A stretch of 48,351 nt of DNA from a virus (Duplodnaviria; Heunggongvirae; Uroviricota; Caudoviricetes), in the IMG/VR virus record IMGVR_UViG_2654588181_000001. One strand, 5' to 3'. The notes beneath the pieces were generated by a model. It saw only the letters and a list, made by a program, of their open reading frames with translations. It searched no databases and was not told where the DNA came from. The position numbers and the translations under genes are program-made. How positions within the stretch are numbered: position 1 is the stretch's first letter; every line of letters begins with the position of its first letter. Positions 1-48,351 of the stretch are shown piece after piece.

Positions 1-1361
1 TTTACCGTTTCCTGTAAACCGAGGTATTCGATAACGGCAGCAACGGTTGATTTCGCAAGAATATCCCGCCCGACTTTTGTCAGGGTTGCCAGGCTGGCGA
101 CATCATTCCCCGTAAAATACGGAAACTTGTCTGCCGCAGTAGTAAGCCCGGCCAGCGCCGTCAGGGTGGCATCTTTCGGTTGCTTACCCGCAAGCGCGTT
201 AGTCATGGTGGTCGCAAAATTCGGGTCGTTTCCCAGCGCCGCCGCTAACTCGTTCAGCGTATTCAGTGCGTCAGGTGACGAATCTACAAGGGCGGCAATC
301 GCAGCCATAACATAAGCCGTGCTTGCGATCTGAGTATTGTTAGTACCTTTTGGCGCAGTTGGTGTTGTTGGTGTTCCGGTCAGCGCCGGACTGTTCAGGG
401 GCGCTTTCTTGTTCGTTTCATCCATTACCACCTTTATAGCTTTCGATGTCGCGGCCAGTGTTTCAGACGTGCTGTTGGTGGCACTACTGAGCTGAGTTAT
501 TCCCCTTACAGTCAGTGAAGCTACAGGCACATTTGTTATCTGCTCCCACGAATGCGTGTGATTGGACGGAGCCTTTCCGGCCGCAAGATCATACGCTGCC
601 TTAACAGCCTTTGGTGTTGCTGCCAGCGTTTCAGACGTGCTGTTGGTGGCACTACTGAGCTGAACAATCCCTTTTCGCGCTGTGGTAGCGTCCTGTGCGG
701 TGTATTTAGCATTAGCCAGGTCATATGCTGCCTTAACAGCCTTAGGCGTCGCAGCAAGCGTTTCAGACGCGCTATTGGTGGCGCTGCTAAGTTGAACAAA
801 GCCTTTTGAGGTTAAAGTTGCATCAGGATGATTACGTGATTGCTCATGTTTCACAATGGCTTGCTTAAGCCGTTTTGCTGAAACAGCAAGGGAATCATCT
901 GTACCTGCATCAATTTCTTGTTCATTAGCAAATCTTGCCACCCCAACAACAGTTTCGGTCGCGGGAGGATTAATAAACTCAATATCACCAAATGTAATAT
1001 TTTTAGTATCAAGCGTTTTAATTGCTATATCACTTGATATTAAAGCGATAGTAGATGATGCTTTATTTATTATTGCTTGTTCTTGTGAGTATACAGCAAA
1101 CAACGTACCCTTATTCGTATACAATCCTATTGTATGGACAACATACTCATCTTTACTATCATCCTTCGCTGTTACATGAATTGTATCAGGGGAAACAACT
1201 TTGCCACCTATTGTGGTAAGTCGTTTTATTTCGTTTGTTATATTTGTTTGTGAAGTTGACGTGACATAATATCTACTACCTAAACCAACAGAAACAATCT
1301 CAACTTTATTTGTTCCTGTTTTGTTGGCATTAACCAGCTCCTGACGCCCGGCGTCAGTCAT
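1..1361 (-). CDS. tail fibre protein, constant N-terminal part (partial at window edge; continues in frame into 48351..47390 if ends are joined)
   Basis: Minus-strand ORF from ATG at 1359-1361 (MTDAGRQELVNANKTG...) with no stop before position 1; three tandem ~50-aa repeats (GIVQLSSATNSTSETLAATPKAVKAAYDLA); last codons ...AVIEYLGLQETV lie inside the 25-bp inversion crossover repeat; sits downstream of baseplate gpI/gpJ-like genes. Confidence 0.8.
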   Translation of the reverse strand, partial: MTDAGRQELVNANKTGTNKVEIVSVGLGSRYYVTSTSQTNITNEIKRLTTIGGKVVSPDTIHVTAKDDSKDEYVVHTIGLYTNKGTLFAVYSQEQAIINKASSTIALISSDIAIKTLDTKNITFGDIEFINPPATETVVGVARFANEQEIDAGTDDSLAVSAKRLKQAIVKHEQSRNHPDATLTSKGFVQLSSATNSASETLAATPKAVKAAYDLANAKYTAQDATTARKGIVQLSSATNSTSETLAATPKAVKAAYDLAAGKAPSNHTHSWEQITNVPVASLTVRGITQLSSATNSTSETLAATSKAIKVVMDETNKKAPLNSPALTGTPTTPTAPKGTNNTQIASTAYVMAAIAALVDSSPDALNTLNELAAALGNDPNFATTMTNALAGKQPKDATLTALAGLTTAADKFPYFTGNDVASLATLTKVGRDILAKSTVAAVIEYLGLQETV

Positions 1362-3892: not shown

Positions 3893-4509
3893 GCCTGAGC
3901 CTCCGTTGTCGGAGCGTATTCCCCCTGAGCCGTGTGATGGTGGCCTTTAGATTTAATCCCATCAACATCTATATCACCACCAACAACCTTAACATCCCCA
4001 GAAATTGTAGCTGCAACACCTCCAGCAGAAGATCCTTTCATTCCACCTTTGAAGGTTAGTAATCCTTCAACTGTAGCATTTCCGGTAATGATGGTTTCTG
4101 GAGCATCAATAGTTACGGTTCCTGTAGCCTTAACGGTTACATCTCCGACAGCATCAACAAGGAGTAAATTAGATTCTCTGTCTACCTCAATACGAGTTCC
4201 GTTATTAAATCTAATGACGCGTTTATTAACAGTATTAGATGGCGGCTTCTGTGTTTCATCATAAAAACTACCAAGAATAAAACCTTGTTGCGGCCCTGCG
4301 GGATGAAAGATACACAAAACTTGCTCACCAATATCTGGCATCCAGTAATCAGCATTCTTATCCGTATTTTTCACAATAACTGATAACTTTGCCGAAGTGA
4401 CGTTATCCTGATCATCGAAAGTAACTCTTGCTGTAACATCACCATCATCAATATCAGAAACAACGCCAACTCTTATAGTCTGACGTAATAATGTTTCTAA
4501 ATCATTCAT
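3889..4509 (-). CDS. baseplate central spike protein, gpV-like
   Basis: 206-aa ORF with Gly-rich C-terminus (GTVTIDAPETIITGNATVEGLLTFKGG...) typical of gpV/Mu gp45 spikes. Confidence 0.7.
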   Translation of the reverse strand: MNDLETLLRQTIRVGVVSDIDDGDVTARVTFDDQDNVTSAKLSVIVKNTDKNADYWMPDIGEQVLCIFHPAGPQQGFILGSFYDETQKPPSNTVNKRVIRFNNGTRIEVDRESNLLLVDAVGDVTVKATGTVTIDAPETIITGNATVEGLLTFKGGMKGSSAGGVAATISGDVKVVGGDIDVDGIKSKGHHHTAQGEYAPTTEAQA

Positions 4510-4511
4510 AA

Positions 4512-5513
4512 TTAATACCCATTAATTACTCTTCGGACATCAATCGAGGTGGTATAACCACTAGCCCCAATTGAATGCACAGCTTTCGATATAAGATATT
4601 TTCCAGAAAATGAACCGAATCCGTCCAGATTTATAGTTACACCAGCTACCAATCTGGTGTCTCCAACCAATACTAAAGATCCTGTATTTTGATATCTATT
4701 TTTAAGCCGCAAAGCAGCCTTTGCCTTACGTTTTGCTTCATCTAAATTAGCTACCAGTTTTCTTATCTTAAGATTCGACCCATCTTCTACGGATGGATCT
4801 ACCCAAGTATACGAAAGCGACTTTCTTTTTTTAGGTACGCGATATTTGCACGTGCAACTTTTATACAAATCTGTAGATTGTGTGCTAAAGCTATATCTGA
4901 TTATCTCATCAATACCTAACGTAAGCGTAGCGATAGGATCTTTTTGCTCAAACATCTCTTGAGCAAATATTATTAATTGGCTATCAGTGACCTTTAACGA
5001 CAACCCTTCATCCTGGCATAGTCGATGGAGAAATTTTAAATCGCTTTCCTCCATTTGATCTTCACGCGCATAATATGGATTACTATCACCATCAATAAGA
5101 AACAACAGTTCAAGGTTAGCTAATTTAGCTATAGAGGTTGCTATATCTTTAAGAGTTGTTTTTTCCCATGCATTACTTTTTAAATCGCGTCTAATGCCTG
5201 ATGAAACAGGAACAGAAACAGCAGTCACCTCAACAACAGAAGGTGGTCCAGAGCAAGTTATGCCATCTACCTGGAATTTCCCGCACTCAAGGACGATTTG
5301 ATTTATAGGCTTAAAGCTCAAATCAATAAAATCACCCTTTTTAGGTGTCCAGTCTCCAGACCATTTCCCATCATCATTTTTTAATATAATAGAAATATCA
5401 TCGACCTGACCATCTTCATTATCTGTATAAGACATTGACAAAACATCAGGTGACATATGAGCGGTAATATTTACATTCTGATATATAACATCAAAAAGCG
5501 TTTTACGTAACAC
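4512..5513 (-). CDS. tail/baseplate hub protein, gpD (late control D)-like
   Basis: 333-aa ORF between tape measure and spike genes. Confidence 0.7.
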   Translation of the reverse strand: MLRKTLFDVIYQNVNITAHMSPDVLSMSYTDNEDGQVDDISIILKNDDGKWSGDWTPKKGDFIDLSFKPINQIVLECGKFQVDGITCSGPPSVVEVTAVSVPVSSGIRRDLKSNAWEKTTLKDIATSIAKLANLELLFLIDGDSNPYYAREDQMEESDLKFLHRLCQDEGLSLKVTDSQLIIFAQEMFEQKDPIATLTLGIDEIIRYSFSTQSTDLYKSCTCKYRVPKKRKSLSYTWVDPSVEDGSNLKIRKLVANLDEAKRKAKAALRLKNRYQNTGSLVLVGDTRLVAGVTINLDGFGSFSGKYLISKAVHSIGASGYTTSIDVRRVINGY

Positions 5514-8951: not shown

Positions 8952-9473
8952 TTATAAACCTAAATCATCACGAACGCTTTTTAATATATCTTCACCATCA
9001 AAGATACAAATAAAGTTCAACTTATCAATTTCCAAGACTTCTTTTCCATCAATAAATAATTTGATATAGAGAACTTCAAATTCATTCTCTGAATCAGTAG
9101 CCTTTGCCACCTGTAGCGAACCTAAATCCAGTTTTTTAGGGTTTAGCTTCATTGAAGCCCGAATAGGAACCGTTTTATATTTTCCTGTTCCTGCATCATA
9201 AACCTGCTGGCTACCGCGAAAATCTACCTGATGCGATGAGGATAGAAATAATTTTGTACCAGCAGAGGTCAGAGTTCGCCATTTAAGAGAGACAGTCATT
9301 GGTTTGAAATGCCCCAGCGTTCCGCTCTCAAGCTCTCCAGCGATACCTGCACCACTAACAGTTTCTGTCATCATCTCAATTGATGGCAGCTTTGCGTCAG
9401 CAACACCGATAATACGGTTTCCCTCACCGTATACTGTAAAGTTAATAAGTCTCTCAGGAATTTGATTGCTCAA
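8952..9473 (-). CDS. tail tube protein
   Basis: 173-aa ORF directly downstream of sheath gene. Confidence 0.75.
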   Translation of the reverse strand: MSNQIPERLINFTVYGEGNRIIGVADAKLPSIEMMTETVSGAGIAGELESGTLGHFKPMTVSLKWRTLTSAGTKLFLSSSHQVDFRGSQQVYDAGTGKYKTVPIRASMKLNPKKLDLGSLQVAKATDSENEFEVLYIKLFIDGKEVLEIDKLNFICIFDGEDILKSVRDDLGL

Positions 9474-24700: not shown

Positions 24701-24966
24701 TCATCATCTCCTGCCGCACATACAACCTCACAAAAAACATCAGCGGAATGTTTCTTTTTGAATGAATGGCGCTCAAAACCGCACTCAATATCAGGCGCAA
24801 AAACATCCACCACATACGGTCTTTCAGAATGTTTGTTTTCCCAACGATAAACCGTAGTGACGTTGAAATGTTTTAACGCTTCACGGAACTCAACGCTGCC
24901 CGTCAGGTTTTTTGAGGTCAGGTATTGCAGGAGGTTTTTTACTACTTCACGGTCTTGTACTTTCAT
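24697..24966 (-). CDS. hypothetical protein (first gene after promoter-leader cassette copy 1)
   Basis: 89-aa ORF; ATG preceded by CCGGAGATAACCCG leader. Confidence 0.5.
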   Translation of the reverse strand: MKVQDREVVKNLLQYLTSKNLTGSVEFREALKHFNVTTVYRWENKHSERPYVVDVFAPDIECGFERHSFKKKHSADVFCEVVCAAGDDE

Positions 24967-25083
24967 CGGGTTATCTCCGGTTTAACCAGGGCGGGTATCG
25001 CTCGGTTTCGGGTATAACCATAGGAAATTTTTTCCCACCTGTAAAGCACCTTTTATATAAATATATAATTATATAATTCTATG
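24967..25083 (-). promoter_or_regulatory. repeated promoter-leader cassette, copy 1
   Basis: Near-identical to 31746..31865 and 41210..41330; -35 TTTACA, 17-nt spacer containing GGAAAAAATTTCC, -10 TATGGT, ~60-nt conserved leader, GGAG then ATG. Confidence 0.6.
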
Positions 25084-25973: not shown

Positions 25974-26049
25974 TGGTGGCCCCTACCGGATTTGAACCGA
26001 TGACCGTGCGATTATGAGTCGCCTGCTCTAACCACTGAGCTAAGGGGCC
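25974..26049 (-). tRNA. tRNA with CAU anticodon (Ile2/lysidine type or Met), CCA encoded
   Basis: 76-nt cloverleaf: GGCCCCT acceptor stem, D-arm TAGCTCAGTGGTTAGAGCA, anticodon loop CTCATAA, T-loop GGTTCAAATCC, 3' CCA; first ~42 nt match my recollection of E. coli ileX. Confidence 0.8.
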
Positions 26050-26218
26050 ATATTTGATTTGTTTGTCTGGTGTGGCGCCGCGCACGAAAATCCCAGCCAA
26101 TAAATTCAGGATTTTTGGGCGCGGCGGCATATCAGACAAACATGGTTGATGCGTGCGCCCATGAGAAAAGCGCATAGAATGTTGTAACTATATATTTATA
26201 TAATTATAGAAATATATA

Positions 26219-27868: not shown

Positions 27869-28561
27869 TTCATAAAGCAACAAATTACGCGGTAATCGCT
27901 TAACGCAGTTTTACTACGTTAAATGAAACACTACACCCAGTTACCACCTAAAACAAGGTTTTCCCATAAAAAAACCTTCATATTGTGGTTAACCGATCAA
28001 TAAAAAAACAATACTTAACTTTTGACCAACCGAACATCCCGACCAGGACTTCCATAATATTCGCCGATATGCCACTGCTTAAGTTGAGTAATCTTCTCCA
28101 ACTTAACGCCCATAGAGTCCAGTTTCTGCCATGTTTTCGGTTGTATGTGCTTCATTACCCGCTCTGAATATCTGAATACTGCTCGTAAGCGCATGGCTTC
28201 TCACTACAGCTTATATAAGTGGTTTTTCCAGCGGTTTTGCGCCGCGCTGCGCTTATCTTTGACTCCCTCTCTGGCAATTCCAGAATATAAGTACAACACC
28301 ACACGGCGGTTGCTAACTCTCAACCACTGGCTGGGATAGCAACGTCTGTATACACGGGAAATAAGCATCTTTGCTTTACGGTTTTTCATCATTTTGCTCT
28401 CCTGCGTTTCTTTGCTGCACGCCGTGCAGCTGCAATACCGGTATGGCGGCGCTTTGGTGCCGGGATGATGTTGTCAGCCATCAGGACATGCGGCTTTGCA
28501 ATTAGCGCAGAAGCCCAAAAACGAGTCGGGTATGGTAACAAGCCGATACATGCCACACGCA

Positions 28562-29101
28562 TTACTCACCTCCTTTGATGCGAATGCCAGCGGCGCGTGG
28601 CACATTAACTTCCACGATGCGCACAGTTGGTTTGTACATCTCGATCGCTGTCAGCCAGTCAGCTCCTGTCATGCGCTTTTCCGCATCGCCATTAGTCCAC
28701 TGAACCGGTACACCAATAGCCTTCATCGCTATTTCTATTTCCCCGGCAATGGCGCTTTTTCCGCAACCAGTAAAACCAGAAACAACGACAAGAACTTCGC
28801 CCCTGGCCGGTTTTATTTCCCGAGCATCCTGTTCCTTAACGCGTTCCTCCAGTTCGTAGACTCTGCATTGCTCTTTATCATCAATCAGATATAACCCAAG
28901 ACATTCGCTTTCTACCCAGCCACCGAAATCATGATCGTAACGCTCACATGAAAACTCACCGTCACCGTCCTTTGTTGGAATTGTGTAACTGTCTAATGGG
29001 CCACCGTACGTCGGTACATTTCCCAATGTCGGATGCTCAATCCACATGAAAAATGCACGTCCGGTTATTGGGCAAATATCTGGTCGCCATTGGTTACTCA
29101 C
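28562..29101 (-). CDS. hypothetical P-loop protein
   Basis: 179-aa ORF; Walker A-like GFTGCGKS in C-terminal half. Confidence 0.5.
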   Translation of the reverse strand: MSNQWRPDICPITGRAFFMWIEHPTLGNVPTYGGPLDSYTIPTKDGDGEFSCERYDHDFGGWVESECLGLYLIDDKEQCRVYELEERVKEQDAREIKPARGEVLVVVSGFTGCGKSAIAGEIEIAMKAIGVPVQWTNGDAEKRMTGADWLTAIEMYKPTVRIVEVNVPRAAGIRIKGGE

Positions 29102-29727
29102 AGGTTGCCCTCCTGAATACGCTTAAACTCAATTACCCATACCCACGGGTTAGATAGCCAGTTCTCTTGCCCGTAAATACCGCGCCAGATATCACCAAAG
29201 CCAACACGATAAACAGCTTCCGGCGGTGTAATTTTGTACGTCGCCGGAGATGCGCCTTCAGCTTTAGCATCTGCCTCGCTCATGTCATGCAGCCGTTCCA
29301 CACGCACGTCGGTTATTTCCAACAGAATGCGGCTGGCCCAACGTGGCATGTGAATCGACGGGGTCCAGCCCTCAGCTGGCTTGCTACTATCTGAGTAATC
29401 AGCCTTGTAATCACACAGTTCAGAAGCCAGAGAGACACCATCTTTGATTTCCTGAATGACATCGTTATCCAGCCAAAAAGCGTTGAATGTTTCACGGACC
29501 CATATGCGATCTCCAACGTTACCGAACGGGCATAAACCATGTTCCGGTGCATCCATAACGTGGGTATAGACACCATTGCGTTTCTTTGTCGGTTTACGGA
29601 TAACCAGGCAGTTATCGGCCCTGACATTTTTTACAGGTCGGCGAGTCTGCGTCTTCCTTCCTTCGAGGATGGCCCGGACCATCTCATCGTTAAAAATCAT
29701 GCCGCGCTCTTTCACTCTCCCTCCCAC
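29098..29727 (-). CDS. hypothetical protein, ASCH/PUA-like N-terminus
   Basis: 209-aa ORF; N-terminal MVRAILEGRKTQTRRPV...GDRIWVRETF pattern recalled from ASCH-domain proteins. Confidence 0.45.
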   Translation of the reverse strand: MGGRVKERGMIFNDEMVRAILEGRKTQTRRPVKNVRADNCLVIRKPTKKRNGVYTHVMDAPEHGLCPFGNVGDRIWVRETFNAFWLDNDVIQEIKDGVSLASELCDYKADYSDSSKPAEGWTPSIHMPRWASRILLEITDVRVERLHDMSEADAKAEGASPATYKITPPEAVYRVGFGDIWRGIYGQENWLSNPWVWVIEFKRIQEGNL

Positions 29728-30677: not shown

Positions 30678-31745
30678 TCAGGCTTTCAATAGCGATTCTT
30701 TCAGATATCGGGCATCAGCCAGGGCGTTTGGAGTAATCTTGCGAACCCATGCATTACGGGTTGGACTCCACTTAAAGGCGCGTGATTTAAGCAGCGAACG
30801 AATGTTTGCCTCTGGTTTGCCAGGGAAATAAAACAGGATGCGGTTATCCTCTGGATCTATCTCCATAGAAAAGCCGTCGTATTCTTCGCGCTGTGCTCCT
30901 GTTACAGACTTGACCGATTCAAGCTCCTTAATACGGCTCTGTAGTCGTTTGATTTCGGCGTTATTGTTGCTCAGTGCGTATGAAGGGAATCCGATGCGCC
31001 CACAGAAATCTCCGGCCAGTAACTCTTTGGCTTCGCTTTCTGTAAACCTGAGATCGATTAATGCAGAAAGCTGCTGTATTTGGTCTTTTTTGTATTTGCG
31101 AATGGCCTTATTTGCGGCCTTCATTTTGACGTGTGACTTCATGCAGCCTTGCAGCTTACGAAGCAACTTAAATAGCGCATCAGGATCATCAGACGAAATT
31201 CCATTACGACCAACACCTGCGGCTTTGCTCTCGTAGTGTGATGCTTTACTTTCGCATTCAACAAACGCTTTTCTGAATAACGCATCAGCTTTAGACAAAC
31301 GGCGGCGATGGCCTTTCGCGCTATAATGGTCAACTAAAATCGGCTGGCCTAACGGGATCACATCCAACAGGTCATGCGCTCGCTTATGCGCTACCGCACC
31401 TTCTTTTCTGGCTTTTTCTGCACGAGCAATATATCGGGCAAGACGCGCGTTCTGGCGTTCCTGATAGGTGTTTACGTAATCATCTCCGCGCTGCTGCTGT
31501 TCAAGCCATGCTTTGCGCAGATCTTCTGTTACGTCCACCAGCTCCGCAGGGATACAACCAGTTTGGGCTTCATAAGAGTAACCATCCTCATAGATACGCC
31601 CATCGTCTTCAACAAAGAAAAAGGTTTCGTGCTCATCGCTTTTGACCATACGACCATTAACATGGCGTAATAGGTAGCCAGTATCAGTGCTTAACAGGCT
31701 GTTAGGGTTGTTGATCCAGTCAGAAATAATTACTTGTTTATTCAT
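30678..31745 (-). CDS. conserved hypothetical protein (possibly DUF3560-like)
   Basis: 355-aa ORF directly driven by promoter-leader cassette copy 2. Confidence 0.55.
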   Translation of the reverse strand: MNKQVIISDWINNPNSLLSTDTGYLLRHVNGRMVKSDEHETFFFVEDDGRIYEDGYSYEAQTGCIPAELVDVTEDLRKAWLEQQQRGDDYVNTYQERQNARLARYIARAEKARKEGAVAHKRAHDLLDVIPLGQPILVDHYSAKGHRRRLSKADALFRKAFVECESKASHYESKAAGVGRNGISSDDPDALFKLLRKLQGCMKSHVKMKAANKAIRKYKKDQIQQLSALIDLRFTESEAKELLAGDFCGRIGFPSYALSNNNAEIKRLQSRIKELESVKSVTGAQREEYDGFSMEIDPEDNRILFYFPGKPEANIRSLLKSRAFKWSPTRNAWVRKITPNALADARYLKESLLKA

Positions 31746-31865
31746 CAGATTTCTCCGGTTTAACCAGGGCGGGTATCGCTCGGTTTCGGGTATAACCTTA
31801 GGAAATTTTTTCCCACCTGTAAAGCACTTTTTATATAAATCTATAATTATATATTTATAGATTTT
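31746..31865 (-). promoter_or_regulatory. repeated promoter-leader cassette, copy 2
   Basis: Same ~115-bp element as copies 1 and 3; -10 variant TAAGGT; leader ...CCGGAGAAATCTG ATG. Confidence 0.6.
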
Positions 31866-35563: not shown

Positions 35564-35713
35564 CTGCAAGCGGGCTAACGCCCGCTTATATGATTATAGA
35601 TTTATATAATTATATAAAACGCTTTTCATCCGCCAAAAAGTTGGTTATGCTTACCTCGTTCTATAAATATAGATTTATAGAATTATATAATCAAACACAT
35701 GGAGTCTCGACAA

Positions 35714-36367
35714 ATGACTATCTCTGTAGGTATTTTCAACGGAAAAGGTGGCGTAACCAAATCAACAATTGCCCGTGCTTTAGCAGTTGCTTATGCAAAG
35801 GCTGGCTGGAATGTATGCCTGATCGATATGGATGTGCTTAACGGAACGGTAACGCGTTGGGTACAACGCAGAATGGCCAACAATATCGAACCAGCAATCG
35901 CGGCGCAGCCGTGCGGCACACCATCACAAGTCCAGAAAATCATCGAATCAGAAGTATACGACCTGGTTATCGTTGATGGCGGTGCCTACGCATCTGAATC
36001 AGTACCGAAGCTATCTGAATTTCTGGATATGGTTATTTTGCCAACCCGATTCTCTACCGATGACCTGGAAACCACCGTTAACACTGCTCACGGCATCGTT
36101 AAAAAGGGTGTACCAATCAAGAAAATTTGCATGGTGTTTTCCGGCGCGGCTGAAAACGAAGCTGACTATATTGAAGCCCAAGAGTACCTGGCTAATACGC
36201 CATACTTTGTTGTCGATAAGTACATTCCCCACAAGCCAGCTCTGAGCAAAGCTCAGGATAAGGGCTTAAGCCTCATTGAATGCTCATACGTTGCGCCACG
36301 CAAAAAGGCAGACGACGTTATTCAGGGGATTATCAACCAGCTTGAGGCTCTGACTACTGCCGCGTAA
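35714..36367 (+). CDS. parA: ParA-family partition ATPase
   Basis: Deviant Walker A GIFNGKGGVTKST at N-terminus; ATG at 35714 with GGAG 10 nt upstream. Confidence 0.85.
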   Translation: MTISVGIFNGKGGVTKSTIARALAVAYAKAGWNVCLIDMDVLNGTVTRWVQRRMANNIEPAIAAQPCGTPSQVQKIIESEVYDLVIVDGGAYASESVPKLSEFLDMVILPTRFSTDDLETTVNTAHGIVKKGVPIKKICMVFSGAAENEADYIEAQEYLANTPYFVVDKYIPHKPALSKAQDKGLSLIECSYVAPRKKADDVIQGIINQLEALTTAA

Positions 36368-36880: not shown

Positions 36881-36903
36881 TAAAAAAGGCCCCCGAAGGG
36901 GCC
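36881..36903 (-). terminator. rho-independent terminator
   Basis: GGCCCC-CGAA-GGGGCC hairpin followed by T-run on minus strand. Confidence 0.5.
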
Positions 36904-36909
36904 TAATCG

Positions 36910-37029
36910 CTACTTGCTGCTAATGTTTATCGTCACATTCAGAGCGTTATCAGTAATCTTCCAACCCTCCCCATGTGGCGTAAACAAAGCTCCAGTAACA
37001 ACGATAAAAATACACATACAGTATTTTTT
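36910..37029 (-). CDS. small hydrophobic peptide (40 aa) with own SD and terminator
   Basis: MKKYCMCIFIVVTGALFTPHGEGW...; AAGGG 8 nt upstream of ATG; terminator immediately downstream. Confidence 0.35.
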   Translation of the reverse strand, partial: KKYCMCIFIVVTGALFTPHGEGWKITDNALNVTINISSK

Positions 37030-37785
37030 CATTGTGTGGCCCTTACAGGCCGTTTCACGGCATCCCCACCGACGAAAACAACGCGAGAGCAAGCACGGCT
37101 GCTTGTGCTTGCATGTACGGCAACAGGAAATCCTCCCCTAAAGTCGGTGCCCGGGTGCGAATCGGCGGGAAGGTCCACAGGTATTTTACGATTATTTTAA
37201 GATTAGTAATAGGAAAGAAATTAAACGAAAAAAACAGTTTATTTTCACAAAATCAGTAACCTACCCACAATCTGTGAGTTTGCTGACACAACAAGAACCA
37301 CAATTTTTTGATGTATAATAGTGGACTATTATTACCTTTTGAGTAAAATCAATTTGCTGCTTGTGCTTGCGTGGTTGTTTATACAACAACGTAATGCTGA
37401 AAGGACCGCGAATCCGATCAGCACGAAAGAACCGTCCTCAATAGGGCGGTTTTTTTGTTTCTGCCTACCAATAAACCCACGCTATGTGGTTGTCTCTGTT
37501 AAAATCCCGCCGTATTGACATGAATGCGCCATTGGTGGACACTTTCCGAGCCGTAGCAAAATCTACGGTCGGGATTAGCCTCCTGAATAACACGATGGCG
37601 CATACCGCGTTAGCGGTTTTTTTATGCGTAGAGCACTGTTACGCCCAAATTATGGTGGGTCGTACAGGGGCGGAGAAATCCGCGCCGGTTCGTCATTGTG
37701 TCCGGTAAGGCTAACCCTGTACGGCTCACCACCATTTGATTAGCCTCGAATGGCGGTGATAGTTCCATATACTGGAGATATCACA

Positions 37786-37977
37786 ATGACAAACCTACCC
37801 CATGACTATTACGTCAACCTCGTAAAGATCCTTCTCAAGAAAGCCTCATACGCCGATAAATTCCGCCTGGCTGAAATCATCGAGCGCGAAGCTATGCGCA
37901 TCGCCAGCAACGATAACGCTGTTTCTGACGCAAAAATCTCCCTCGTAACCAAAGTAGTTATGGGAGGTGCAAAATGA
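37786..37977 (+). CDS. small ORF overlapping antirepressor start (icd-like position)
   Basis: Stop overlaps ant ATG (ATGA at 37974..37977); start uncertain. Confidence 0.35.
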   Translation: MTNLPHDYYVNLVKILLKKASYADKFRLAEIIEREAMRIASNDNAVSDAKISLVTKVVMGGAK

Positions 37978-39116
37978 AAACGCTTCCGACCGTTAACACC
38001 CTACAGCCTATCCTGCATAACCAGATCCCCGTTATCACTAGTGAACTTCTGGCGCAGTTATACGGAACAAAAATCAAAAACATTTCTGATAACTTTCTGA
38101 ACAACACGACGCGATTCGTAGCCGGAAAGCATTACTTTAAAATTGAAAAAAACGAATTACGCGAGTTCAAGAACAGACCCGAAACAATCGGGTTAGTTGG
38201 TAAAAATGCCCGCTCCCTAATTCTCTGGACCGAACGCGGGGCTGCACGTCACGCTAAAATGCTCGAAACCGATCAGGCGTGGGATGTATTCGAACGGCTG
38301 GAAGACTGCTATTTCAGCCAGAACGCGCAAACGGCCGCGACCGTAACCGTCTCGCCAAACAATGCTCGTGAGGTTGTCGATACGCTCAACGCCAAACCGA
38401 TGTTTTACATTAAGGTGTGCAATAACGAGCCACTCACAACCTCAGCCGATGTTGCCCAGGCATTCAGCACCACAAACAATTCCATCGTTATGGCCATCGA
38501 TGCGCTACGCATTCCTCGCACGGCTGCGGCGCGTCACTTCTTTAAAGAGCAACGACCGTTGGAAGGAAGCGACCGCGAAATAACAATCTATCGCATGACA
38601 AAAGACGGATTTACCTTGCTCATGGAGAGCATCGACGGTCCAGGCGTGAAAGATATCAAGCTGGCCTACATTGAAGCCTTTAACGCTATCAGCAGCGTGT
38701 TAAAAACACAGTACGAGCGTGATCTGGCTAAACGACTGTACCAGGAAAAAACGATTATCCGCGCGGCAACAGAGCATAATCGGCTATTAACGGAACCGAA
38801 CTACAGGAAGGAACTAATCAAGGAGTTTGACAAGGCAACAGGGAAAACCAAAGCGGCGCTAAATCTGCCAGCAATGACTCAGGAAAATGTGATATCAGCC
38901 TTACTTCTTGATCTGCTCAGAAACGCCAGAGCACTTATCAGCTTTGACGAAAACCTGAATCCTCAGCTCAAGCTACTACCACCGACAGGCAAAGTAGTCG
39001 ACCAGGCTGATCACAACAGCATACTCAGCGTACTGGATGCAAACCTGCCAGCCAGGACACTACAGGATCTGATAAAAACATGTGCTGATAAGCTGGCACA
39101 GAAAAGCAGACCATAA
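37974..39116 (+). CDS. antirepressor (Ant-like)
   Basis: 380-aa ORF; N-terminal KilA-N/ORF6N-like segment; operator-like CCCACGCTATGTGGT upstream at 37477..37491. Confidence 0.7.
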   Translation: MKTLPTVNTLQPILHNQIPVITSELLAQLYGTKIKNISDNFLNNTTRFVAGKHYFKIEKNELREFKNRPETIGLVGKNARSLILWTERGAARHAKMLETDQAWDVFERLEDCYFSQNAQTAATVTVSPNNAREVVDTLNAKPMFYIKVCNNEPLTTSADVAQAFSTTNNSIVMAIDALRIPRTAAARHFFKEQRPLEGSDREITIYRMTKDGFTLLMESIDGPGVKDIKLAYIEAFNAISSVLKTQYERDLAKRLYQEKTIIRAATEHNRLLTEPNYRKELIKEFDKATGKTKAALNLPAMTQENVISALLLDLLRNARALISFDENLNPQLKLLPPTGKVVDQADHNSILSVLDANLPARTLQDLIKTCADKLAQKSRP

Positions 39117-40198: not shown

Positions 40199-40299
40199 TG
40201 CATCCTCTACCTTTCCCTAGATATTCAATAAATTAGACATAGCCACTCACGACAAAATAAGATGTATTAACAATCCAATCTTTAGGCTTTAGGTAAAAA

Positions 40300-40725
40300 A
40301 TGAGTTCATCTGCTTTTGTCACCGTGGTCACTGGTGTAAGTGTTTTTGTTCTAGGCCAACTCATCGTCAAAGGAGCTATTGAGCCTTACATTTCATTCAG
40401 GGAACAACTAGGGAAAATATCCAATCTGTTATTGTGTAACCAAGCAAAAATAGTGAATCCTGGCTCGAACTTAAAGCCAGAAATCATTCATGATCTAAAA
40501 GATTCCGCAGCACAGTTAATGGCGAAATATTCCACTTTACCTTTCTATATCAAAAAGTTACATATCGGCTTTCGTCTTGTTCCATCAGCCACCGAGATTC
40601 TTGGGGCAGCTCGAAATTTGAACTATATAGCGTCAATACATGAAGGTAAGACTGGGGAGAATCCATCTAAGCATCTCGAAGATATTGGCCATATGCTCAA
40701 AATACCAACTACCTATTCAAGCTAA
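40300..40725 (+). CDS. hypothetical membrane-anchored protein (AT-rich moron)
   Basis: 141-aa ORF with N-terminal TM helix; visibly lower GC than flanks. Confidence 0.45.
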   Translation: MSSSAFVTVVTGVSVFVLGQLIVKGAIEPYISFREQLGKISNLLLCNQAKIVNPGSNLKPEIIHDLKDSAAQLMAKYSTLPFYIKKLHIGFRLVPSATEILGAARNLNYIASIHEGKTGENPSKHLEDIGHMLKIPTTYSS

Positions 40726-40828
40726 CCCAATGCAAGTTATCGGCTTGCCCCACAATAAGTTATCTATCTTCAAACACCCCCTATATTAACACTCGCAAAG
40801 TGTCATTTTGACACTTTGCGCATTGTGT

Positions 40829-41209
40829 TTACTTAACGAGGAATAAAAATGGTTTATTGTTAGGCGGTGTAATCGGGGCTGGCTCGCTTTTGCTCATGCG
40901 ATCAGTGTACCAGGCCAACTCCTTGTCAAAGTAAGCCTGATTAAAATAGGCCATGAATGTAGTTTCAAATCCATAACGACCGCTAATACGCAGCATCTGA
41001 TTGCCGTTCTCTGTTTCCAGATATACCTGGGCACGCTCCTGATTCTCCTTCAGCCAAGTTAAAGCCTCATCGCACGAGGACACACGATACTCATCATCGT
41101 AGCCGTCATCGATGCGGCTTGAAGAAGAACGGCAAATCACGCCAACAGAACCAGCCAGGATAGTTTGAATTTTAAGGAAAGCGTTTTTGCGGATTTTAAT
41201 CATGCTCAT
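40829..41209 (-). CDS. hypothetical protein (driven by cassette copy 3)
   Basis: 126-aa ORF; ATG preceded by CCGGAGATAACCCG. Confidence 0.5.
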   Translation of the reverse strand: MSMIKIRKNAFLKIQTILAGSVGVICRSSSSRIDDGYDDEYRVSSCDEALTWLKENQERAQVYLETENGNQMLRISGRYGFETTFMAYFNQAYFDKELAWYTDRMSKSEPAPITPPNNKPFLFLVK

Positions 41210-41330
41210 CGGGTTATCTCCGGTTTAACCAGGGCGGGTATCGCTCGGTTTCGGGTATAACCATAGGAAATTTTTTCCCATCCGCAAAGCACTTTTTATA
41301 TAAATCTATAATTATATAATTCTATGAGCA
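41210..41330 (-). promoter_or_regulatory. repeated promoter-leader cassette, copy 3
   Basis: Same element as copies 1 and 2; -35 variant TTTGCG; preceded by terminator 41326..41358. Confidence 0.6.
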
Positions 41331-43481: not shown

Positions 43482-44330
43482 TTAATGTTGGAGTGATTTC
43501 CAGGTCTTTCTTAACCTGTTATAACGCTGCTCAACGAGGGATCGTAAATATGCAAGGTCAGCTCCAGGATACATGCCATCAGCAAATTCCTGGCTAACCT
43601 CTCTAGTGATTTGATGACGAAGTTCGGCCTCTCCCTTTTCCCGAACAAGACGCGCAGCTCTCTCCGCTGCTTTCTGTTTTGCCTTTATCTCTCTGGCCGT
43701 CTTCCTCTGACGCCATACATTCTCCATCTGCTCCTGAATAACAATACGCTTATAATCAGCCTCCGTTATCGCTTTTTTAAGCCGTTCGCTATTCTTCGCA
43801 TTGAAGTAATTAAGTTTCTGGCTAACCGCACGTCTCCATGCTTGTTCAGTAATACCAACGGTTTCCAGCAGTTGATCACGAATCTCTATTTTCGCTGGCC
43901 AATACTGTTTATTCACCCGATCCCAGCGACGTTCATAATCAATAAAACCTAACGCTTTCAGTTGCGACAACGCCCTTGTACAGCGTGTTATAGACTTGTT
44001 CCCAGCTTCGGATACGGTAGACAGGCCGCAAAAATCAGCCAACGCCTCAGCACTGGCCAGAACCCGCTTAGAAATGATGTTTACATGGTGCAAAATCGCA
44101 GCAATCACAGCATTAATCGCCCGACGACGATGCTCGTTTATCCGACGCTTCCGCTCTGACGGTTGATTAACGTAGAACGCAACCTCACACGTAAGATCAC
44201 GACCATTAATGCGCTGTAAAGCATCAGATAACACCAGCGGCAGCTTGTGCGTATGGTGCTTTGGAGGCTGGAACTCCGGCGACAAATTACAAACGTAAGC
44301 TGAACGTAGAGACGGCATTGGTCTATCCAT
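43482..44330 (-). CDS. repA: plasmid replication initiator, IncFII RepA-family
   Basis: ...GLSTVSEAGNKSITRCTRALSQLKALGFIDYE... resembles IncFII RepA1 core as recalled; start uncertain (TTG 44360, ATG 44330 or 44318). Confidence 0.75.
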   Translation of the reverse strand: MDRPMPSLRSAYVCNLSPEFQPPKHHTHKLPLVLSDALQRINGRDLTCEVAFYVNQPSERKRRINEHRRRAINAVIAAILHHVNIISKRVLASAEALADFCGLSTVSEAGNKSITRCTRALSQLKALGFIDYERRWDRVNKQYWPAKIEIRDQLLETVGITEQAWRRAVSQKLNYFNAKNSERLKKAITEADYKRIVIQEQMENVWRQRKTAREIKAKQKAAERAARLVREKGEAELRHQITREVSQEFADGMYPGADLAYLRSLVEQRYNRLRKTWKSLQH

Positions 44331-44344
44331 ATGTTCGCTCTTGC

Positions 44345-44457
44345 GTCCACGGAAAACCAACGTATAATGGGAGTTGTCGAGGCGCCCATGGTTAATTGGT
44401 TGTTGGTTTTCCGTGGATGTCGCAAGAAGCCCGCAGATTTATCTGCGGGCTTTTTGT
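44345..44457 (+). ncRNA. candidate countertranscript (CopA-like antisense RNA)
   Basis: Plus-strand 15-bp-stem hairpin (44347..44361 / 44403..44417) plus intrinsic terminator GCCCGCAGA-TTTAT-CTGCGGGC-TTTTT (44428..44457), antisense to repA leader. Confidence 0.35.
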
Positions 44458-44644: not shown

Positions 44645-45199
44645 TCAATGATTCCCAGCCGGAAACCTGCGGTAAAGCGTGGATAAGGTAACATCGAAGA
44701 TAATCGCTATCCGCTTACGTGAAACACCATTCGCAATAAGCCTTCCGATCTGTTCCCATTGCTCTGGGGCCAATTTTGAGCGGCGTCCTCCTATCCTGCC
44801 ATTAGCCCTTGCCACCGCCAATCCTGCACGCGTTCTTTCAATCATATTTTCCCGCTCCATCTCTGCGACTGCACTCAGCATCGTGTAGGCAAAGCGGCCA
44901 ATTGAAGTGCTAATTTTTATCCCTTCCGTAATCGAAATAAACTCAATGTTGTTTGATAAAAAATGGTTAAGTAAATCAACAAGATGAATCAGAGAACGCC
45001 CCATTCGATCCAGCTTCCAGACAATAACCGTATCGCCCGGCCGTAACACCTTCAGTAGCTTATCAAGCCCTGGTCGTTTTGATTTAGCACCGGATATTTT
45101 ATCTTCAAAAATCCGGTCACATCCTGAACTCCTGAGCGCCTCCAGTTGTAATTCCAAATTCTGGTCAAAAGTTGACACCCTCGCATAACCATATTGCAT
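44645..45199 (-). CDS. serine DNA invertase (Gin/Cin/Pin/Hin family)
   Basis: 184-aa ORF; N-terminal YARVSTFDQ with catalytic Ser, C-terminal HTH; adjacent to inverted repeat. Confidence 0.9.
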   Translation of the reverse strand: MQYGYARVSTFDQNLELQLEALRSSGCDRIFEDKISGAKSKRPGLDKLLKVLRPGDTVIVWKLDRMGRSLIHLVDLLNHFLSNNIEFISITEGIKISTSIGRFAYTMLSAVAEMERENMIERTRAGLAVARANGRIGGRRSKLAPEQWEQIGRLIANGVSRKRIAIIFDVTLSTLYRRFPAGNH

Positions 45200-45272
45200 A
45201 CTTTCTAAACCGCGATTGTTGCTAAAAGCGGGAAAAAATATCGTTTAGACGACACAGAGGCAATTCGCAAAA

Positions 45273-45297
45273 ACCTCGGTTTACAGGAAACGGTAAA
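45273..45297. repeat. inversion crossover site, left inverted repeat
   Basis: ACCTCGGTTTACAGGAAACGGTAAA = exact reverse complement of 48327..48351 and of 1..25. Confidence 0.8.
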
Positions 45298-46297
45298 CAA
45301 GGCTGGTAACGCCGTGCAAAAGACAGGCGATACCTTGTCCGGTGGACTTACTTTTGAAAACGACTCAATTCTTGCATGGATTCGAAATACCGACTGGGCA
45401 AAGATTGGATTTAAAAATGATGCCGACAGCGATACTGATTCATACATGTGGTTTGAAACAGGCGACAACGGCAATGAATATTTCAAATGGAGAAGCAAAC
45501 AAAGCACCACAACAAAAGACCTGATGAATCTTAAATGGGATGCTTTGTCTGTTCTTGTTAAAGCCCTTTTCAGCAGTGAAGTAAAAATATCGACAGTCAA
45601 TGCACTGAGGATATTTAATTCATCTTTTGGTGCCATTTTTCGTCGTTCTGAAGAATGCCTGCATATCATCCCTACACGAGAGAATGAGGGGGAAAATGGT
45701 GATATAGGGCCACTACGCCCCTTTACGCTTAATCTCAGAACAGGTCGCATAACTATGGGGCATGGTCTGGATGTTACAGGAGATATATTTACAAACCGTT
45801 TTTTAATTAACAGCAGTACAGGCATGTGGATTCATATGCGTGACCAGAACGTTATTATGGGACGTAATGCGGTATCCACTGATGGTGCTCAGGCATTGCT
45901 TCGTCAGGACCATGCCGACCGCAAGTTCATGATAGGTGGATTGGGAAATAAGCAATTTGGCATCTACATGATTAATAACTCAAGGACAGCCAATGGCACC
46001 GATGGTCAGGCGTACATGGATAATAACGGGAATTGGCTTTGCGGCTCGCAAGTTATTCCCGGCAACTATGGCAATTTTGATTCCAGATATGTGAAAGATG
46101 TTCGACTTGGTTCACAGCAATATTATGGAGTGAACAACTGGCAAACATGGAATTTCCAGTGCCCGTCAGGTCATGTATTGTCTGGTATTAATGTTCAGGA
46201 TACAGGGTCCAACTCTGCCGATAATATAGCGGGCGTTTATTACAGACCCGTTCAAAAGTATATAAATGGCACCTGGTATAATGTAGCGAGCGTTTAA
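45273..46297 (+). CDS. alternative tail-fibre C-terminal cassette (silent in this orientation)
   Basis: Open frame through the left repeat (…[25 protein letters not shown]…) with no upstream start; becomes fused to the constant part after inversion. Confidence 0.7.
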
Positions 46298-46298
46298 T

Positions 46299-46826
46299 AT
46301 GATGCACTTAAAGAACATAAAAGCGGGTAACGCTAAAACACTGGAACAGTATGAGTTAACAAAGAAACACGGAGTTATCTGGCTTTACTCTGAGGACGGA
46401 AAAAACTGGTATGAGGAAGTGAAAAACTTTCAGCCAGACACAATAAAGATTGTTTACGATGCAAATAATATTATTGTCGCCATCACTAAAGATGCCTCCA
46501 CGCTTAACCCTGAAGGTTTTAGCGTCGTTGAGATTCCCGATATAACAGCCAATCGTCGTGCCGATGATTCAGGAAAGTGGATGTTTAAGGATGGAGCTGT
46601 AGTTAAACGGATTTATACGGCAGACGAACAGCAACAACAGGCCGAATCACAAAAGGCTGCGTTACTTTCCGAAGCTGAATCAGTCATCCAGCCGCTGGAA
46701 CGTGCTGTCAGGCTGAATATGGCAACAGACGAGGAACGCACACGACTGGAAGCATGGGAACGCTACAGTGTTCTGGTCAGCCGTGTGGATACGGCAAAGC
46801 CAGAATGGCCACAAAAACCAGAGTAA
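46299..46826 (+). CDS. tail fibre assembly chaperone (silent-orientation copy)
   Basis: 175-aa [17 protein letters not shown]...; paralog of 46854..47387. Confidence 0.75.
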
Positions 46827-46853
46827 AATTAAGGCCCGATAGCGGGCCTTCTC

Positions 46854-47387
46854 TCATTCTGGTTGTTCGGGAAACGTTACTGGCAGGCTGGAGGTGTCTG
46901 TAGATTCGACTTTCTGCGCATAGAGCATCCACTCGGTTAATTTTTGTTTATTCTCGTCGGAAATGATGCCCAGCCGTAACTGTGAGTCCCATAGCTGGGT
47001 TTTATCCCTGACGAGCTGTAGCAAGCTTTGCTTTTCATTTTCCACCTGTTGCCGCTGCTCTTCCTCGGTATAAGTTCGCTTTATCACTACGCCATCTTTG
47101 AACATCCATTTACCCGAAATATCAGCCCGGCGATTTGCTGTAATATCAGGTAATTCAACGACGCTTGCGCCTTCTGGATTAATTGCTGAAACATCCTTTT
47201 CAATACAAATAATAACGCCGTTGTGGTCATAGACCATTTTCAACGTATCAGGCTGAAAGTTCTTTTGTTCCTCATACCAGTTTTTCCCATCCTCTGTATA
47301 AAGCCATTTGATGTTAAATTGTTTCGTTAGCTGGTATTGCTCTTTTGTTTTAGGGTTGCCAGCAGTAATATTTTTTAAGTGCATCAT
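46854..47387 (-). CDS. tail fibre assembly chaperone (expressed-orientation copy)
   Basis: 177-aa ORF MMHLKNITAGNPKT...; directly follows fibre C-terminal cassette. Confidence 0.75.
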   Translation of the reverse strand: MMHLKNITAGNPKTKEQYQLTKQFNIKWLYTEDGKNWYEEQKNFQPDTLKMVYDHNGVIICIEKDVSAINPEGASVVELPDITANRRADISGKWMFKDGVVIKRTYTEEEQRQQVENEKQSLLQLVRDKTQLWDSQLRLGIISDENKQKLTEWMLYAQKVESTDTSSLPVTFPEQPE

Positions 47388-47389
47388 AA

Positions 47390-48351
47390 TTAAATACTCC
47401 CCGCGTTATACCACGTTCCATTAATGCAATACTGAATTGGCCTTGCCTGAGTTGTATCAATTAATTCATCACGGTTTCCGTTAACTGACCCCGTAACGAC
47501 ATAACCTGACCTGTCAGACCAGCCGGGACCATTCCATGTCTGAACAGATGACAGACCGCCAAGACGAATACCTGTAATAAACCTTGAGTTACATTCTGCC
47601 TGCGTGTATGCACCAACATCTCCCGCAGAGGGTTTGCGGGTTGTGGTGTAAAACTCTGACCAGTCAGCTTCAAAGCCATAACCATCACGCGCTGAACGAT
47701 AAAAGATACCGCCATTTCTGTAATTCACGCGGAACTGTACAGCAGGGCTGCTCCCCGTATTCATATTGAAGTGGAGGATTAATGTCGATGCGCCACCAAT
47801 ATTTGCGTTATAGACCCCGCTATTCCAGTTCCAGCCAACAGCTTTATCATTTCCGACAGTGCTTCCTGTTTGCCCTAAAGCAAATGCAGGCTGCTGGTTT
47901 TTCGTGTTGTAGTCTCGTCGCCAGCCAGGAGCATAAGCATCACCATGATTAATATAGGTGAATTGAGCGTTAGTAATTCCGCCGCCGCTGGACGTACTCG
48001 GCGTAGTAACGCGTATGGTCATTGCGCCGCGAGTGCCAATAACTTCCACCACAGCACCTGCAAGACAAATATTTCCGCAACCTGTATCTGTAATGACCTT
48101 ATTATTTGCATAAGCCCATGAGCCTTTGCACATCCAGTAAGGATGGTTAAATGCCCCCTGACTCTCCAGCCACGAAATAAATTGCGCAGTTGTCCAGACC
48201 TGACTATCGCCACCAATATCCACCCATGCGCTATATGCGCGACAGGCCCCAATATTTTTGGTGAAGGTATCTTTTCCCGGAATATCTGCGCCGTTCTGGT
48301 TTTTCTGTAATGCGCCAGAAGCCTGATTTACCGTTTCCTGTAAACCGAGGT
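47390..48351 (-). CDS. tail-fibre variable C-terminal part (in frame with constant part at 1..1361 across the junction)
   Basis: Minus-strand frame open from 48351: [18 protein letters not shown]...; Gly-rich distal domain ending INGTWYNAGSI. Confidence 0.8.
   Translation of the reverse strand, partial: LGLQETVNQASGALQKNQNGADIPGKDTFTKNIGACRAYSAWVDIGGDSQVWTTAQFISWLESQGAFNHPYWMCKGSWAYANNKVITDTGCGNICLAGAVVEVIGTRGAMTIRVTTPSTSSGGGITNAQFTYINHGDAYAPGWRRDYNTKNQQPAFALGQTGSTVGNDKAVGWNWNSGVYNANIGGASTLILHFNMNTGSSPAVQFRVNYRNGGIFYRSARDGYGFEADWSEFYTTTRKPSAGDVGAYTQAECNSRFITGIRLGGLSSVQTWNGPGWSDRSGYVVTGSVNGNRDELIDTTQARPIQYCINGTWYNAGSI
48327..48351. repeat. inversion crossover site, right inverted repeat (identical to 1..25)
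   Basis: TTTACCGTTTCCTGTAAACCGAGGT; core resembles gix/cix-type sites as recalled. Confidence 0.8.

Follow-up and report, generated by a model that had tools for sequence, protein, structure and literature searches.

The window analysed here, a stretch of 48,351 nucleotides from a tailed virus (Caudoviricetes; IMG/VR record IMGVR_UViG_2654588181_000001), begins and ends with the same 25 bases, and these ends fall inside a tail fibre gene. Is this short repeat a physical end of the genome, a trace of the assembly, or part of the biology of the element, and is the genome complete? An earlier note on this DNA offered two readings, a complete circular phage-plasmid of about 48.3 kb or a contig broken at an inversion repeat. 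Our analysis supports both, as statements that are true together and not as alternatives. We consider it about 90% probable that the window spans the full circle of a myovirus-type Escherichia phage-plasmid of ~48.3 kb and repeats 25 bases of it, and that this phage-plasmid carries a switch of the Mu G type and was cut at the inversion repeat of that switch.

The terminal repeat and the crossover sites

Direct sequence comparison bears out the reported identity of the two ends. Positions 1-25 and 48327-48351 both read TTTACCGTTTCCTGTAAACCGAGGT, and the longest exact terminal overlap found by script is 25 bases exactly, leaving a unique length of 48,326 bp after removal of the redundancy. A third copy, absent from the list of the earlier note, is exact, inverted and internal (Table 1). 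Allowing up to 3 mismatches, the window contains three matches to the 25-mer, whereas 100 dinucleotide-preserving shuffles contain none. On its outer side, the repeat ends at a mismatch between A at window position 26 and T at the equivalent position by the invertase-side copy, and on its inner side at a mismatch between T at 48326 and G in the internal copy. Because the match between terminal and internal copies breaks off at identical positions on either side, the contig ends are at the same time the limits of an independently defined inverted repeat. The suggestion that the contig broke at the inversion repeat is thereby upheld: the 25-mer is part of a gix-type site, and its limits are the contig ends.

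We compared the sites with the G-segment boundaries annotated in Mu and with the cix sites annotated in P1. The two window sites are 26 bp long and mutually inverted, each consisting of 12-bp half-sites around a shared 2-bp core (TC), with the same inner half-site and core in both. The fibre-side site, read as the reverse complement of window 9-34, is TTATCGAATACCTCGGTTTACAGGAA, and the invertase-side site is TTCGCAAAAACCTCGGTTTACAGGAA; the mismatches in Table 1 are counted against TTATCCAAAACCTCGGTTTACAGGAA, the sequence of both gixL and gixR of Mu. The inner half-site, the central TC and the next 8 nt into the segment are identical to Mu, whereas the outer half-sites, TTATCGAATACC and TTCGCAAAAACC, differ from TTATCCAAAACC in Mu. 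We refer to the sites as hybrid in this sense, with Mu-type inner halves and different outer halves. Since the annotated boundary of the Mu segment is the central dinucleotide, we place the crossover at 21-22 (equivalent to 48347-48348) and at 45276-45277, about 3.07 kb apart. The window end at 48351 falls 9 nt short of a complete 26-bp site. Beyond these two, the circle contains no gix-like site at up to 7 mismatches of 26. A multi-site inversion system, as in p15B Min or the shufflons, was considered and rejected, given that there are two sites only and no extra copies of the 25-mer at up to 3 mismatches.

An open frame at 45209-45272 (+), beyond the invertase-side site, runs into the repeat. 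It looks like the vestige of the fibre constant part of another phage, and as such would be consistent with acquisition of the segment and the invertase module as a cassette.

Table 1. Positions of the main features of the window (1-based coordinates).
Feature	Position	Strand	Remarks
Redundant end, copy 1	1..25		8 nt inner flank + 17 nt of the fibre-side crossover site
Fibre constant N-terminal part	1..1361	-	453 aa, to ...LGLQETV; three Phage_fiber_2 repeats
Fibre-side 26-bp gix-like site	9..34	-	TTATCGAATACC-TC-GGTTTACAGGAA; 2 mismatches to Mu gix
ParA-type partition ATPase	35699..36367	+	
Replication initiator RepA	43482..44360	-	IncFII family; above the NCBIfam RepA_IncFII_LM cutoff
Serine DNA invertase	44645..45199	-	184 aa; Resolvase E = 2.6e-44, HTH_7 E = 2.9e-13
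Invertase-side 26-bp gix-like site	45264..45289	+	TTCGCAAAAACC-TC-GGTTTACAGGAA; 3 mismatches to Mu gix
Third exact copy of the 25-mer	45273..45297	-	Inverted; its limits define the exact inverted repeat
Silent alternative fibre C-terminus	45298..46297	+	Mu S-like, 63% identical; Gp34_trimer domain
Second chaperone, Caudo_TAP	46299..46826	+	91.4% identical to Mu U; silent in the window orientation
G+C-rich hairpin, terminator-like	46831..46850		Between the convergent chaperone genes
Tail-fibre assembly chaperone of the expressed form, Caudo_TAP	46854..47387	-	98.3% identical to Mu U'
Variable fibre C-terminus joined to the constant part	47390..48326	-	97.8% protein identity to Mu S' variable part, G(-) form
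Redundant end, copy 2	48327..48351		Coincides with 1-25 when circularised

The fibre switch and its invertase

The fibre reading frame that starts at 1361 on the minus strand had been described as running without a stop to position 1 and continuing in frame at the junction, and we confirmed this after joining the ends. The single in-frame protein expected from the join (1361 through 48326 to 47390) is indeed encoded, with its length corrected from roughly 770 to 765 aa; it carries three Phage_fiber_2 repeats followed by a gp37_C-like end. Save for the shared repeat, its constant part lies outside the invertible segment. The silent fibre C-terminus is also in frame with the repeat, and both fusions to the constant part are open, giving 765 aa as assembled and 786 aa after inversion. 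Two convergent cassettes, each of a fibre C-terminus and a chaperone, thus make up the segment, and the constant part outside is in frame with both. In DNA, the segment shares 88-92% identity with its invertible counterparts in Mu, SfMu, D108, P1 and P7, and the homology with Mu starts at the crossover site (query position 771, equal to window 45270). One further ORF (45205-45825, minus strand), which overlaps the silent fibre end and has no Pfam match, was taken as spurious. Window 415-807 (minus strand), within the constant part, consists of three tandem repeats of ~130-170 nt, which are the Phage_fiber_2 units. Fibre length among relatives ranges from 737 to 840 aa, and for this reason the number of these repeats probably varies from one relative to another.

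The only recombinase of the window is a small serine recombinase with an N-terminal resolvase domain, a C-terminal helix-turn-helix and a serine at position 9, the layout of the Gin/Cin/Pin/Hin type (~185-195 aa, catalytic serine at 9-10). Its gene starts 74 bases beyond the invertase-side site and, like gin in Mu, points away from the segment. Gin is also its closest solved relative (E = 9e-62 over residues 2-181), with 55.6% identity, and Cin is 55.7% identical; in NCBIfam, no named family scored above the cutoff for the invertase or for the chaperones. S9 is retained in the conserved ...RVST... motif and aligned with the catalytic serine of Gin, and M114 is in the wild-type Gin state. In Gin, S9 is the catalytic residue and the change of M114 to V gives Fis independence (PMC3575834). 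We took as the mark of a recombinational enhancer a pair of Fis sites, spaced by 48 bp, within the 5' portion of the invertase gene. The scan for the Fis consensus returned a single 7/7 match, at nt 71-85 of the gene, without a convincing partner 48 bp off; the position of this match is kept in gin and cin and lies within the annotated enhancer of P1 (cin nt 19-90). The invertase presumably depends on Fis and an enhancer. Because the enzyme is only ~56% identical to Gin and Cin and the outer half-sites are unlike those of gix, we infer from the sequence, and do not take as given, that it acts on the window sites. Proteins identical to the invertase are recorded in 2,331 blocks. The contigs that carry them have a bimodal length distribution (994 blocks at 2-5 kb and 856 at 20-50 kb), which points to breaks close to the invertase in many draft assemblies.

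We propose that this Gin/Cin-like invertase recombines the two inverted gix-like sites at the central dinucleotide, and that recombination would flip the segment with its two convergent fibre C-terminus and chaperone cassettes. The promoter and the 453-aa constant part would remain outside, so that each orientation would join the constant part to a different receptor-binding end, yielding either the 765-aa form (Mu S'/U'-like) or the 786-aa form (Mu S/U-like). The switch would presumably alter the host range.

Both orientations of the segment do occur among closed relatives. Two 825-nt queries, one for each possible fibre-side junction, were built and compared with PLSDB. Among the matches listed, the window-type junction is present as one piece in about 15 relatives at 84-97% identity, and at least 80% of the inverted junction is present in 10 relatives, 7 of which hold it in full at 94-96%. 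The segment of phage vB_YpM_39 is likewise inverted with respect to the window. The most direct case is a 77-kb contig that encodes the identical invertase (CABEEY010000004.1), on which the element is present twice at a distance of 48.6 kb. The two copies have flanks that are collinear at 99.8%, and the 3,048-bp stretch from site to site is an exact inversion, at 99.97% identity, which shows that site-to-site inversion happens in a plasmid encoding the same enzyme.

A separate rearrangement distinguishes two sibling phages, in which the inner ~1.2 kb of the segment is inverted (vB_YpM_44 3914-5117 relative to vB_YpM_41 4016-5220). The breakpoints lie off the gix-like sites, in inverted repeats of ~405 nt inside the two chaperone genes; this difference could be a nested inversion by homologous recombination or an assembly ambiguity. 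The corresponding arms in the window are just 73-78% identical. The 41-nt junction on the fibre side was also searched for in public viral contigs: 32 contain it, in each case at an internal position and with no sign of breaks there, and the same scan of one-genome-per-species contigs gave no match.

Evidence for a complete circle with a phage-plasmid backbone

The view of the window as a complete circular phage-plasmid of ~48.3 kb finds support in closed plasmids that are collinear with it and unbroken through the junction. Foremost among these is 'unnamed_1' of E. coli ATCC 25922 (NZ_CP009073.1), a closed circular plasmid of 48,488 bp, which by BLAST is collinear with the circularised window all round. 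At the join, window 46076-48326 aligns with 11462-9217 and window 1-495 with 9216-8722, and the plasmid is thus contiguous at 9217/9216, the equivalent of window 48326|1. Its gene order is baseplate, fibre, chaperone, inverted chaperone, an unannotated silent fibre end, recombinase and RepA. Cassettes are swapped between the two at window 28188-29721, 37463-38222 and 40208-40782, the silent fibre end (45305-46075) has diverged, and the number of fibre repeats is different. These gaps in collinearity correspond to cassettes of like size, with no DNA missing and with neither an integrase nor host genes.

A 2,876-nt query across the junction extends this observation. It is matched over 80% or more of its length by 13 complete-genome E. 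coli records, nearly all of them 46-50 kb in size, with outliers of 32,182 and 94,204 bp. The three best hold it as one single piece at 94.5-97.1% identity, for example NZ_CP158145.1 (48,395 bp, 97.1%). Terminal overlap and closed circular relatives that are contiguous through the join together indicate a circular replicon. The first 24 kb of the window match 88 plasmid records, 44 of which (PLSDB) cover at least 80%, nearly all from Escherichia; among the matches listed, most are 47.5-49 kb long and 97-99.5% identical.

The gene content agrees with a phage-plasmid. RepA and ParA, on which the earlier note had based the backbone, were both found, and the lack of an integrase stands as well, since none is annotated in the collinear closed plasmid and the window's only recombinase is the serine invertase. 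The annotation of NZ_CP009073.1 includes portal, protease, capsid, tail sheath (as 'phage tail protein'), tape measure and baseplate. Replication and partition genes are thus found together with a virion gene set and without an integrase. Over the structural half, 99% identity is reached by the isolated 49-kb Yersinia phages vB_YpM_39/41/44 and by two partial Escherichia phage records; the isolates at this level of identity include vB_EcoM-613R2. With RepA and ParA on one side and isolated phages 99% identical in the structural half on the other, the label 'phage-plasmid' is well founded; that the element itself forms infectious virions is suggested indirectly, by these near-identical isolates. 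The three vB_YpM records all start at about window 20216, an intergenic position upstream of the operon of a ParB-like gene and the terminase. With a terminase of the GpA (lambda/P2) type, this position is a candidate cos or packaging site.

The closed E. coli plasmids of ~48.5 kb (NZ_CP009073.1, NZ_CP158145.1) and phages vB_YpM_39/41/44 belong to the same element family as the window, with the same order of fibre, segment, invertase and RepA and 97-99% identity over most of the circle. A first label for this family, 'pSLy3-like', was dropped on the strength of the literature, which assigns pSLy3 to the SSU5 supergroup (PMC7969092); the close matches of the window are records of ~48-49 kb. Our literature search found no paper describing the ~48-kb family by name or its inversion system, and the DNA matches did not include phage HQ103 (MZ420230).

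Several features elsewhere in the window deserve mention. A module of ~120 nt occurs in three copies, 88-96% identical (24963-25083, 31741-31861 and 41206-41326), each at the head of a different minus-strand operon and made up of an AT-rich TATATAA-type motif with 8-bp periodicity, a conserved leader of ~95 nt, a ribosome-binding site and an ATG. It looks like a shared promoter/operator with a conserved 5' leader. The AT-rich motif alone is found at about eight intergenic sites, also near 26180, 30614, 35586, 35659 and 36367. Rfam matches above the gathering score include isrK (37550-37623) and C4 antisense RNA (37648-37736), both in the plus-strand region 37550-37736 just upstream of an ORF6N and Rha antirepressor-like gene (37974-39116, +); this layout resembles the immI immunity arrangement of P1. 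The minus strand carries a full-length match to the ryfA sRNA (36882-37178, 140 bits) and a tRNA-Met gene with anticodon CAT (25974-26049).

Origin of the contig ends and comparison with known switches

How could a circular element yield a contig with these ends? We propose that the exact inverted repeat of 25 bp caused a branch in the assembly graph, with the backbone piece ending at the fibre-side inner end of the repeat and the segment piece at its outer end. The path of the contig would leave from the fibre-side inner repeat end, run round the plasmid, enter the segment via the invertase-side site and stop at the outer end of the same repeat. A path that halts on its second meeting with the repeat gives rise to an apparent 25-bp direct terminal repeat. 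Such a branch arises if both orientations are present in the sample, whatever the k, or if k-1 is 25 or less, regardless of orientation; the branch at the 25-bp repeat could thus also stem from a very small k-mer, without inversion in the sample. The sequenced sample may have contained both orientations. Whether the contig ends lie on the repeat limits because the culture contained both, which would imply appreciable flipping as a plasmid by an invertase lineage ~56% identical to the known enzymes and acting on hybrid sites, is in our judgement an evenly balanced question.

The alternatives to a cut at the inversion repeat differ in what they make of the ends. Circular contigs from de Bruijn assemblers often show a terminal overlap of k or k-1 bases, and the 25 bases could accordingly be an arbitrary k-mer overlap at a random cut of a circular contig, in a position unrelated to the inversion system. 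The circle itself, supported by the closed relatives and the junction query, is common to this explanation; however, the limits of the overlap match those of the internal inverted copy (45273-45297) on both sides, a random cut would fall in the same register about once in 48,000, and 25 is not a usual final k, which makes it improbable. We see an equally slim chance that the contig is incomplete, having broken at the repeat with more DNA between the ends, for example further invertible modules as in p15B Min or a shufflon. Contigs that end in repeats often are incomplete, and the variable fibre length of the relatives could be read in this direction. Nonetheless, with 48,326 bp of unique sequence the window agrees in size with its closed relatives (48,395-48,488 bp), the closed plasmid runs over the join without an insert, and just two gix-like sites are present at up to 7 mismatches.

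Much less probable still are the explanations that do without a circle. Direct terminal repeats serve as a sign of complete linear phage genomes, and the 25 bases might then be the physical ends of a linear virion or linear plasmid genome. Against this, the repeat sits in the middle of the fibre reading frame, the relatives have been deposited as closed circular records, the terminase belongs to the GpA type, and the shared start of the three related phage records lies far from the contig ends. We give as little credence to an integrated prophage that lost its flanks. A chromosome record of 5.28 Mb (OU349839.1) does have the segment, the invertase and RepA, at 3.20 Mb and without the fibre constant part, in a copy that may be either integrated or misassembled. 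Yet the window has RepA and ParA and no integrase, all of its parts have a counterpart in a closed plasmid or are matched by an equivalent cassette, with no host genes, and the 44 PLSDB plasmids that match 80% or more of the window's first 24 kb are, among those listed, mostly 47.5-49 kb in size.

Read as a circle cut at its inversion repeat, the window can be used as a complete circular genome of 48,326 bp, in which the fibre gene is to be annotated across the origin and in two alternative forms. In addition, it is a clean case in which a short 'direct terminal repeat' originates in the repeat of an invertible segment, with neither a packaging terminus nor an assembler k-mer as its source. 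Completeness pipelines that use terminal repeats of at least 20 bp would arrive at the right answer here, for a reason that lies outside their model.

The switch and the plasmid family are already public, in dozens of closed records and in isolated phages, and biologically there is nothing new in them; the window's switch is the classic host-range inversion of Mu and P1 on another backbone. The G segment of Mu (Gin/gix) is its nearest counterpart, with ~3 kb of DNA that is ~90% identical and the same gene order (variable fibre end, chaperone, convergent second chaperone and fibre end). Mu S' and U' share ~98% protein identity with the expressed fibre end and chaperone of the window, the gix sites have the same inner half-sites and central dinucleotide, and gin, like the window invertase gene, directly neighbours the segment and is read in the outward direction. 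The differences concern the invertase, which is merely 55.6% identical to Gin, the exact repeat, which at 25 bp is shorter than that of Mu, and the constant part of the fibre, which has 453 aa as opposed to ~170 aa in Mu. The carrier differs as well, Mu being a transposable phage and the window a RepA/ParA plasmid-prophage. In this last respect the window is closer to P1 and P7, whose C segment (Cin/cix) is an invertible fibre segment on a plasmid-prophage and is 87-92% identical in DNA over ~74% of the query. P1, however, measures ~94 kb and has an unrelated backbone, its cix sites depart from the gix type at 5-7 of 26 positions, and its cin, the product of which is 55.7% identical to the window invertase, is transcribed towards the segment and not away from it.
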